Assembly (NCBI GenBank): GCA_964016885.1 | Contig: OZ024740.1 | Location: 203,856,001 to 203,920,000, forward strand | Direction of reading: 5' to 3' | Length of the DNA stretch: 64,000 nt | Origin: Eledone cirrhosa | Lineage: Eukaryota | Shown: positions 13,498 to 14,990 of the stretch, one piece after another | Position numbering within the stretch: the first letter of the stretch is position 1 | Layout of the letters: each line of letters starts with the position of its first letter | Notes under the pieces: model-generated | Told to the model about the DNA's origin: nothing | The model's input: only the letters and a program-made list of their open reading frames with translations | Database searches by the model: none | Program-made: the position numbers and the translations under genes

Positions 13498-13783
13498 TAC
13501 ATATATATATACATAATATATATATATATATATATTACATATATATATACATACATATATATATATATATATTATATATATTACATATATATAAATATAT
13601 ATATATATTACATATATATATATATATATATATATTACATATATATATATATATATATGAAGACAAACATAGAATATTCGAAAATATTCTGTATGTTTAT
13701 AATAAACATTTTGAAGACCCAATCGCTATAGAATAGAATACGTCACGTATTACAATTTGAGATTCTCGATAAAAGCAAGGGAA

Positions 13784-13826
13784 GTAACCTACGCGTTTCA
13801 TTCTTATTAGAAATCATCAGGGTTAC
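13784..13826 (-). ncRNA. Minimal type-I hammerhead ribozyme (unit 1)
   Basis: gtaacc-CTGATGA-t ttct aata agaa t-GAAA-cgcg-TA-ggttac. Confidence 0.85.
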
Positions 13827-14094
13827 ATATCCAGTGCTTTTATCGAGAACGACACAGCTAGAGACTTATAGAATACTTAGCTGTGTACAGGAACTGTTTG
13901 AAAGAGCGGTAGCCGGTCCGACAGAAATTAGAATTTGGATATAATGCTCTGAAATAGCGATATATATGTGAAGACAAACATAGAATATTCGAAAATATTC
14001 TGTATGTTTATAATAAACATTTTGAAGACCCAATCGCTATAGAATAGAATACGTCACGTATTACAATTTGAGATTCTCGATAAAAGCAAGGGAA

Positions 14095-14137
14095 GTAACC
14101 TACGCGTTTCATTCTTATTAGAAATCAACAGGGTTAC
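14095..14137 (-). ncRNA. Hammerhead (unit 2), core mutated to CTGTTGA
   Basis: Same as unit 1 with A6U. Confidence 0.7.
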
Positions 14138-14406
14138 ATATCCAGTGTTTTTATCGAGAACGACACAGCTAGAGACTTATAGAATACTTAGCTGTGTACA
14201 GGAACTGGTTTGAAAGAGCGGTAGCCGGTCCGGCAGAAATTAGAATTTGGATATAATGCTCTGAAATAGCGATATATATGTGAAGACAAACATAGAATAT
14301 TCGAAAATATTCTGTATGTTTATAATAAACATTTTGAAGACCCAATCGCTATAGAATAGAATACGTCACGTATTACAATTTGAAATTCTCGATAAAAGCA
14401 AGGGAA

Positions 14407-14449
14407 GTAACCTACGCGTTTCATTCTTATTAGAAATCATCAGGGTTAC
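14407..14449 (-). ncRNA. Minimal type-I hammerhead ribozyme (unit 3)
   Basis: Identical to the unit 1 motif. Confidence 0.85.
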
Positions 14450-14990
14450 ATATCCAGTGCTTTTATCGAGAATGACACAGCTGGAGACTTATAGAATACT
14501 TAGCTGTGTACAGGAACTGGTTTGAAAGAGCGGTGGCCGGTCCGGCAGAAATTAGAATTTGGATATAATGCTCTGAAATAGCGATATATATGTGAAGACA
14601 AACATAGAATATTCGAAAATATTCTGATGATTTCTAATAAGAATGAAACGCGTAGGTTACTTCCCTTGCTTTTATCGAGAATCTCAAATTGTAATACGTG
14701 ACGTATTCTATTCTATAGCGATTGGGTCTTCAAAATGTTTATTATAAACATACAGAATATTTTCGAATATTCTATGTTTGTCTTCACATATATATCGCTA
14801 TTTCAGAGCATTATATCCAAATATATATATATATTACATATATATATATATATATATTACATATATATATATATATATATATGTAATATATATATATATA
14901 TATAAATATGTAATATATATATATATATATAAATATGTAATATATATATATATATATATATATTACATATATATATATATATATATATAT

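Follow-up and report, generated by a model that had tools for sequence, protein, structure and literature searches.

Head-to-head hammerhead retrozyme arrays in the Eledone cirrhosa genome carry a Penelope-like insertion footprint and point to a single unit-length template

In a 64-kb window of the Eledone cirrhosa genome (64,000 nucleotides of contig OZ024740.1, the whole stretch analysed here), a non-coding tandem repeat carries a hammerhead ribozyme in each unit, which raises the question of what machinery brought the repeat there and what template was copied. An initial annotation had described a tandem array at 13658..14821 made of near-identical units of 311/312/312 bp, and had proposed a retrozyme whose RNA circles are re-integrated by rolling reverse transcription. 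Unit anchors at 13659, 13970, 14282 and 14594 bore out these unit lengths (98-99% identity), as did TRF (period 312, 3.2 copies, 97% matches). Tandem units were present in the left arm, but the last 199 bp proved to be an inverted arm and no fourth tandem unit. The locus consists of two head-to-head arms with both 3' ends pointing outward into (TA)n (Table 1), a context in which target-site duplications cannot be delimited. The left arm has its outer 3' end at unit position 132 (the “short” end, beside an internal AT tract) and its 5' end at unit position 99, and the outer 3' end of the right arm is at unit position 168 (the “long” end). Just left of the locus (window 11880-13190) lie transposase fragments interrupted by (TA)n, which from their motifs we take to be mariner-like; farther along the window are an uninterrupted 1125-aa frame on the minus strand (50798-54175), presumably of an RTE-type LINE from its appearance by eye (endonuclease, RT, C2H2 fingers), and a long G-rich 29-bp minisatellite array with strong GC skew (59907-64000).

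Table 1. Coordinates of the two-armed retrozyme locus and its flanks within the 64-kb window
Feature	Position	Strand	Basis and remarks
Left (TA)n microsatellite flank (target)	13196..13658		TRF, sequence
Left arm, 969 nt, ~3.1 units, ribozyme sense outward	13658..14626	-	sequence
Hammerhead 1 with internal loop and 15-bp outer helix	13763..13849, core 13784-13826	-	fold; weak Rfam HH9; predicted cut between 13790 and 13789
Hammerhead 2, A6U at 14128	14095..14137	-	sequence; predicted cut site 14101/14100
Hammerhead 3, intact core	14407..14449	-	predicted cut between 14413 and 14412; weak Rfam HH9
Inner head-to-head junction, 3-nt CTG microhomology	14624..14626		sequence
Right (inverted) arm, 199 nt	14624..14822	+	starts at CTGATGA of the hammerhead, without the 5' stem I strand
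~36-nt “tail” between short and long 3' ends	14787..14822	+	only at the right end of the insertion
Right (TA)n microsatellite flank (target)	14823..15113		TRF

The annotated ribozymes, one minimal (type I) hammerhead per unit on the minus strand with A6U in unit 2, were confirmed by the core sequences. The cores read GTAACC-CTGATGA-T-TTCT(AATA)AGAA-T-GAAA-CGCG-TA^GGTTAC, the intact ones starting at 13820 and 14443, and the core at 14131 reads CTGTTGA. Helix III is the palindromic ACGCGU, and the base of stem II is a U-U mismatch, a correction to the earlier description, whose core elements otherwise stood. Rfam HH9 matched units 1 and 3 weakly (21.8 bits, E 0.15, against a gathering score of 52) and left unit 2 unmatched; Rfam miRNA matches at the locus were rejected as AT-repeat noise. 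The catalytic half of hammerhead 2 is predicted to be dead through A6U, and because of this substitution the copy at 13658-14822 is probably an impaired source.

The monomer folds at -76.6 kcal/mol (z -4.58; none of 100 shuffles was as good) and as a circle at -71.6 kcal/mol, and its fold, a check that the initial annotation had proposed, contains the 15-bp outer helix and both additional hairpins described there. The minimum-energy fold of a single hammerhead copy lacks the hammerhead core, and that of two copies is a double hammerhead with a 6-bp intermolecular helix III (-70.7 versus 2 x -32.3 kcal/mol). Thus the modelled folds fit a dimer-type cleavage after GUA. Across 16 sequences from sister subfamilies, both partners vary in 20 of 28 named pairs, and pairing holds in 88.1% of cells (76.2% when shuffled, 35-47% in slid controls); as the structure was drawn from one of these 16 sequences, all of them related, such covariation is supportive of selection on the ribozyme fold and is not a probability. 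In the sister families C3-G8 is replaced by U3-A8 and helix III is palindromic or nearly so. One diverged sister lies in the window itself (8600-9080), two-armed, with a ~320-nt unit, a U3-A8 core, a GUC cut site and a longer palindromic helix III. Both the U3-A8 variant and dimer dependence have been described for hammerheads of Penelope-like elements (PLEs; PMC4209133), and for Xenopus retrozymes cleavage in vitro is reported for one of nine dimers (bioRxiv 2026.07.22.740005). Among contigs from sequencing runs (four of five runs, none of them recorded as RNA), very deep variant contigs occurred in X1 and X3, and X4 gave a single 342-nt contig going round 311 nt, a picture that a tandem array produces just as a circle does.

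The remaining features place the element in a class that is already known. Its longest ATG ORF has 34 aa, in agreement with the “no ORF” of the initial annotation, and its arms are whole-unit multimers with no LTR structure. A tRNA scan of the element returned none, no internal promoter was recognised by eye against Pol III boxes, and the RT and GIY-YIG ORF expected of an autonomous PLE is absent from the element. It has tandem units within ~150-450 bp, one type I hammerhead in each (the left arm has three cores, of which one is A6U), neither ORF nor LTR, a dispersed multicopy family and a stable, highly paired monomer, all as in non-LTR retrozymes. In the 3.0-Gb genome there are 17,802 exact ribozyme cores of families A and B and 21,282 occurrences of a tail 18-mer (0 for the reversed control in both cases), alongside diverged sister subfamilies. 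The element is therefore a very abundant, young, non-coding member of the non-LTR retrozymes.

Metazoan non-LTR retrozymes and their RNA circles were described in 2020 from coral, mussel and axolotl (Rtz_331 and Rtz_353; PMC7229834), and the Eledone element shares with them, as reported there, units of 150-450 bp with one type I hammerhead each, the lack of an ORF, low GC and a highly paired monomer. Its one-pair helix III with palindromic tetraloop is like that of HHR_Amex1, and its U-U stem II base like that of HHR_Amex2 (PMC7229834). Neither a pair of head-to-head arms nor fixed short and long 3' ends nor (TA)n targeting, in contrast, was found in the main text of that paper; moreover, the RNA of metazoan retrozymes has been demonstrated there, whereas the Eledone element is known here from DNA sequence.

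How general the two-armed structure is was assessed in a unit search scored over the best 39 of 499 candidate places (225 matches). Among these best 39 of 499, 32 family-A loci were two-armed head to head and seven were single-armed. One short end (unit position ~125-141, at the internal AT tract) was combined with one long end (~160-172), ~36 nt apart, in 28 of the 32 two-armed loci; two short or two long ends occurred in none, and four had one off-site end. Were the ends chosen independently at 50:50, the chance of 28 mixed pairs would be 4e-9. Pieces below 60 nt or below 90% identity were left out before ends were counted; L017 lost a piece of 78 nt in this way, and L045 an inverted piece of 100 nt with its end at the short site. 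In ten further A/B-type loci, taken as the first pattern matches along C1, nine were short plus long and the tenth had only a 33-nt inverted stub. Inner joins were mostly overlaps of 0-4 nt, with a few small insertions and one gap of 233 nt.

Such a combination of an inverted truncated copy and a tail at one end (28 of 32 two-armed loci among the best 39 of 499; nine of the ten position-sampled loci) is what characterises PLE insertions, for which the reported hallmarks are a 5'-truncated copy in inverted orientation, a tail of 30-40 bp at one end and a bias to microsatellites or (TA)n (PMC8557442). We read the short/long end pattern, from its sequence, as the PLE “tail” signature. Purified PLE protein (Poseidon PAc) is reported to cut and extend both strands of AT-rich DNA, with start points at two adjacent positions within the RNA that delimit the tail (PMC11167929). 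Within the window, GIY-YIG PLEs at 33738-35024 and 35225-37893 have the same two-armed geometry with ends ~60 nt apart, and the L130 PLE family has the same layout with ends ~36 nt apart. The retrozyme identity proposed by the initial annotation, with dimer-type cleavage and rolling reverse transcription, fits the genomic data, including haplotype-clonal arrays and intact junction spacing (below); that annotation had overlooked that the second arm is inverted and that the ends bear the PLE tail signature.

Judged by their flanks, the targets are biased to microsatellite or AT-rich DNA. An origin of the (TA)n flanks during insertion, in the manner of telomerase, was not supported: the array of L046 sits in a (TA)n tract that is also present in paralogous empty copies and so pre-existed. 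Two empty-site comparisons had no bearing on this, their left flanks being truncated repeats. At L046 this tract belongs to another hammerhead-bearing repeat (CTAG loop III, ~500 bp period, internal (TA)n), which is also found at window 54776-54830 and in L049 and L089.

With the integration footprint in place, the template was approached through variants shared by units. At four variable sites, haplotypes matched in 101 of 101 cross-arm and 110 of 115 within-arm unit pairs, versus 1967 of 5889 (33%) between loci; none of 2000 permutations was as high, although pair counts are not independent and the loci are the best 39 of 499 candidates. In family A (87 units) the mean differences per pair were 1.78 within an arm, 1.69 across arms and 4.08 between loci, with ~0.85 private changes per unit; in family B (60 units, seven loci) they were 0.09, 0.07 and 2.69. 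Rare variants ran through both arms of single loci (L082, L034, L087 and L094). The 5' ends of 73 arms showed no departure from a uniform distribution round the unit (KS p 0.09) and no pile-up at the cut site (three of 73 within 5 nt, 2.3 expected), and the spacing across the cleavage site was intact at 157 of 157 sites. The youngest loci (L087, L088 and L095) contained 12-14 full units over both arms with almost no differences, and long, perfectly uniform arms of 8-9 full units occurred in near-zero-divergence loci with several haplotypes. Taken together, clonal haplotypes, scattered 5' ends, intact spacing and arm lengths thus fit one endless unit-length template, i.e., a circle, that would have been copied twice. 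A germ cell expressing a single source, however, would equally give clonal arms from two molecules.

The reading that we favour, and hold to be probable on this evidence, is that of a young non-LTR retrozyme whose self-cleaved, circularised monomer would be copied by a PLE protein from both ends of a DNA cut. The proposed steps are: i) read-through transcription of an arm would give a multimeric RNA; ii) double hammerheads formed via the 6-bp ACGCGU duplex would cleave it after GUA; iii) the monomer would be ligated into a circle by a host ligase such as RtcB, whose ligation of axolotl and mussel retrozymes has been demonstrated (PMC7229834); iv) a GIY-YIG/RT PLE protein would cut both (TA)n strands; v) on one and the same RNA, reverse transcription would start at two sites separated by ~36 nt, each serving one strand; vi) each cDNA would make a varying number of turns of the circle, and microhomology-mediated repair would join the two cDNAs. 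A stricter version, to which we give even chances, is that each insertion preserves the trace of a single PLE dimer bound to a single RNA circle, the two active sites being fixed to start points 36 nt apart, one per DNA strand, and each rounding the circle independently. Weighed against the PLE and circle reading were the partner PLE that was not found in the loci sampled (below), arms with period-2 variants, the composite locus L072, the one cleaving Xenopus dimer in nine and the in vitro data on PAc, for which hammerhead mutants are reported to be still inserted, unprocessed RNA to be the main substrate and start sites to be the same on both strands (PMC11167929).

An alternative is that the two-ended PLE insertion has as its template a linear multimer that was never cut, transcribed from source arrays of homogeneous sequence, so that the hammerhead would be a passenger or would act at some other step. 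In vitro insertion with no need for hammerhead cleavage (PMC11167929), the weak helix III and the U-U stem II base would agree with it, as would the few haplotypes that recur among loci and the arms that share variants with roughly period 2 (L046, L047 and L050), a sharing from which we read that multimeric templates or later local duplication do occur. But family variants are almost always locus-wide and seldom confined to single units, a distribution that requires a one-unit bottleneck; the uniform arms of 8-9 units in near-zero-divergence loci with several haplotypes, and the covariation that speaks for selection on the ribozyme fold, also count against it. We regard an uncut multimer as unlikely to be the template, with more weight than any of the alternatives below.

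A cleaved linear monomer, on reaching whose 5' end the reverse transcriptase would jump to the 3' end of that monomer or of another, would account for the monomer bottleneck without ligation, and one haplotype (L087) carries one extra nucleotide 2 nt away from the cut site. It is improbable, however, given the unbroken spacing at every junction and the lack of 5' ends piled up at the cut, and jumps between molecules would mix haplotypes, of which no case was seen.

Palindromes can convert arm to arm. Short two-armed insertions might have been expanded later in DNA by slippage or unequal exchange and homogenised by such conversion, and some variants shared within arms do point to local duplication; a satellite model with local amplification has been suggested for retrozymes (bioRxiv 2026.07.22.740005). 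Yet the youngest loci already have their 12-14 full units with almost no differences, and differences across arms in family A are no greater than those within arms, with most of a change per unit being private, which makes expansion in DNA very improbable as the origin of the arrays. Least credible of all is that the first cDNA folded back and was copied to give the inverted arm, or that the element is a foldback or MITE-type DNA transposon: the overall palindromic shape and the same haplotypes on both arms would suit either, but the termini differ by the tail, the inner junctions vary, and a fold-back copy, which must be shorter than its template, is excluded because either arm can be the longer one (of the 28 loci, among the best 39 of 499, 17 have the longer arm at the short end and 11 at the long end).

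If, as the favoured reading of a PLE-copied circle has it, a PLE protein acts in trans, a partner might be recognised by homology to the unit. A PF01541 scan gave 10,596 candidates, and loci sampled from these were searched with an nhmmer profile of the unit: no ORF-linked unit homolog was found among 50 of 150 listed GIY-YIG loci, 30 loci belonging to one PLE family or the PLEs of the window. Beside PLEs, only retrozyme-like copies were found (L102 by eye, L139 and L143 by match patterns, with an edge match at L164). The L130 PLE family has a hammerhead layout similar to that of the retrozyme, and in L072 (1490-2070) an inverted 3' end of this family is joined to a family C retrozyme arm through 3-nt microhomology. 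Either the arms of this locus stem from two different RNAs or two insertions have fused; the join may be a template switch or a fusion of neighbours, and is a lead to the partner. The L130 family remains only a lead because its 3' end has no sequence match and each of the two L072 arms seems to carry a long end.

The GIY-YIG loci L101-L180 include several PLE families with minimal hammerheads and palindromic tetraloops (CCGG, GTAC), some of which share the U-U stem II base of the retrozyme. In the window, a GIY-YIG/RT Penelope-like family with its own hammerhead-like core is two-armed in (TA)n (33738-35024, 35225-37893 and 15100-15800, with a further hammerhead core at 33932); one copy adjoins the right flank of the retrozyme, and the family has no sequence similarity to the unit. 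Another GIY-YIG Penelope-like element, at 55260-57250, has a CxxxxCxxC motif ahead of its nuclease.

The Eledone element is like EN+ PLEs in its inverted 5'-truncated copy, a tail of 30-40 bp at one end and microsatellite targets (PMC8557442, PMC11167929), and in minimal dimer-type hammerheads including the U3-A8 core variant (PMC4209133); unlike them, it has no RT or GIY-YIG ORF, forms whole-unit multimers on both arms and has no sequence link to any autonomous PLE sampled. Like Chlamydomonas MRC1 (PMC8557442) and the Xenopus retrozymes (bioRxiv 2026.07.22.740005), it is a non-coding head-to-tail multimer of the kind attributed to PLE machinery. In those two cases, as reported, the link to PLEs consists of 3' or pLTR homology and co-occurrence, whereas here it consists of the integration footprint, with parent-PLE homology not found in the sample.

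Metazoan retrozymes are described as showing no motif that reveals their mobiliser (PMC7761336), and in the literature seen their mobiliser has so far been argued only from co-occurrence and pLTR similarity (PMC7229834, PMC7761336), as in the proposal of a PLE origin (bioRxiv 10.64898/2026.07.22.740005), in which, supplements aside, inverted arms or tails are unmentioned. Conversely, opposite-strand hammerhead pairs 100-700 bp apart have been noted and circular templates proposed for PLE tandems (PMC4209133), and the origin of tandem or inverted one-tailed PLE insertions has been called undefined (PMC8557442). We found no report in the literature of two-armed, one-tailed, haplotype-clonal retrozyme arrays, of which subscription papers or supplements could hold one. 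What is new here is the PLE integration footprint on a retrozyme together with the single-template evidence.

This footprint is carried by a non-coding unit of the circle type, in thousands of very young copies, and follows countable rules: i) one short and one long end; ii) one haplotype per insertion; iii) no preferred 5' stop. Such rules make the questions of the retrozyme mobiliser and of PLE insertion testable with the existing in vitro PLE assay. Should the picture of one PLE dimer on one circle be true, the near-identical loci, in their thousands, would prove directly from genomic data that a ribozyme circle is reverse-transcribed in rolling-circle mode, PLEs would be identified as the mobiliser of retrozymes, and the inverted-plus-tail structure of PLEs would be explained in general. 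Moreover, the loci are long DNA palindromes, whose read-through transcripts would form double-stranded RNA.
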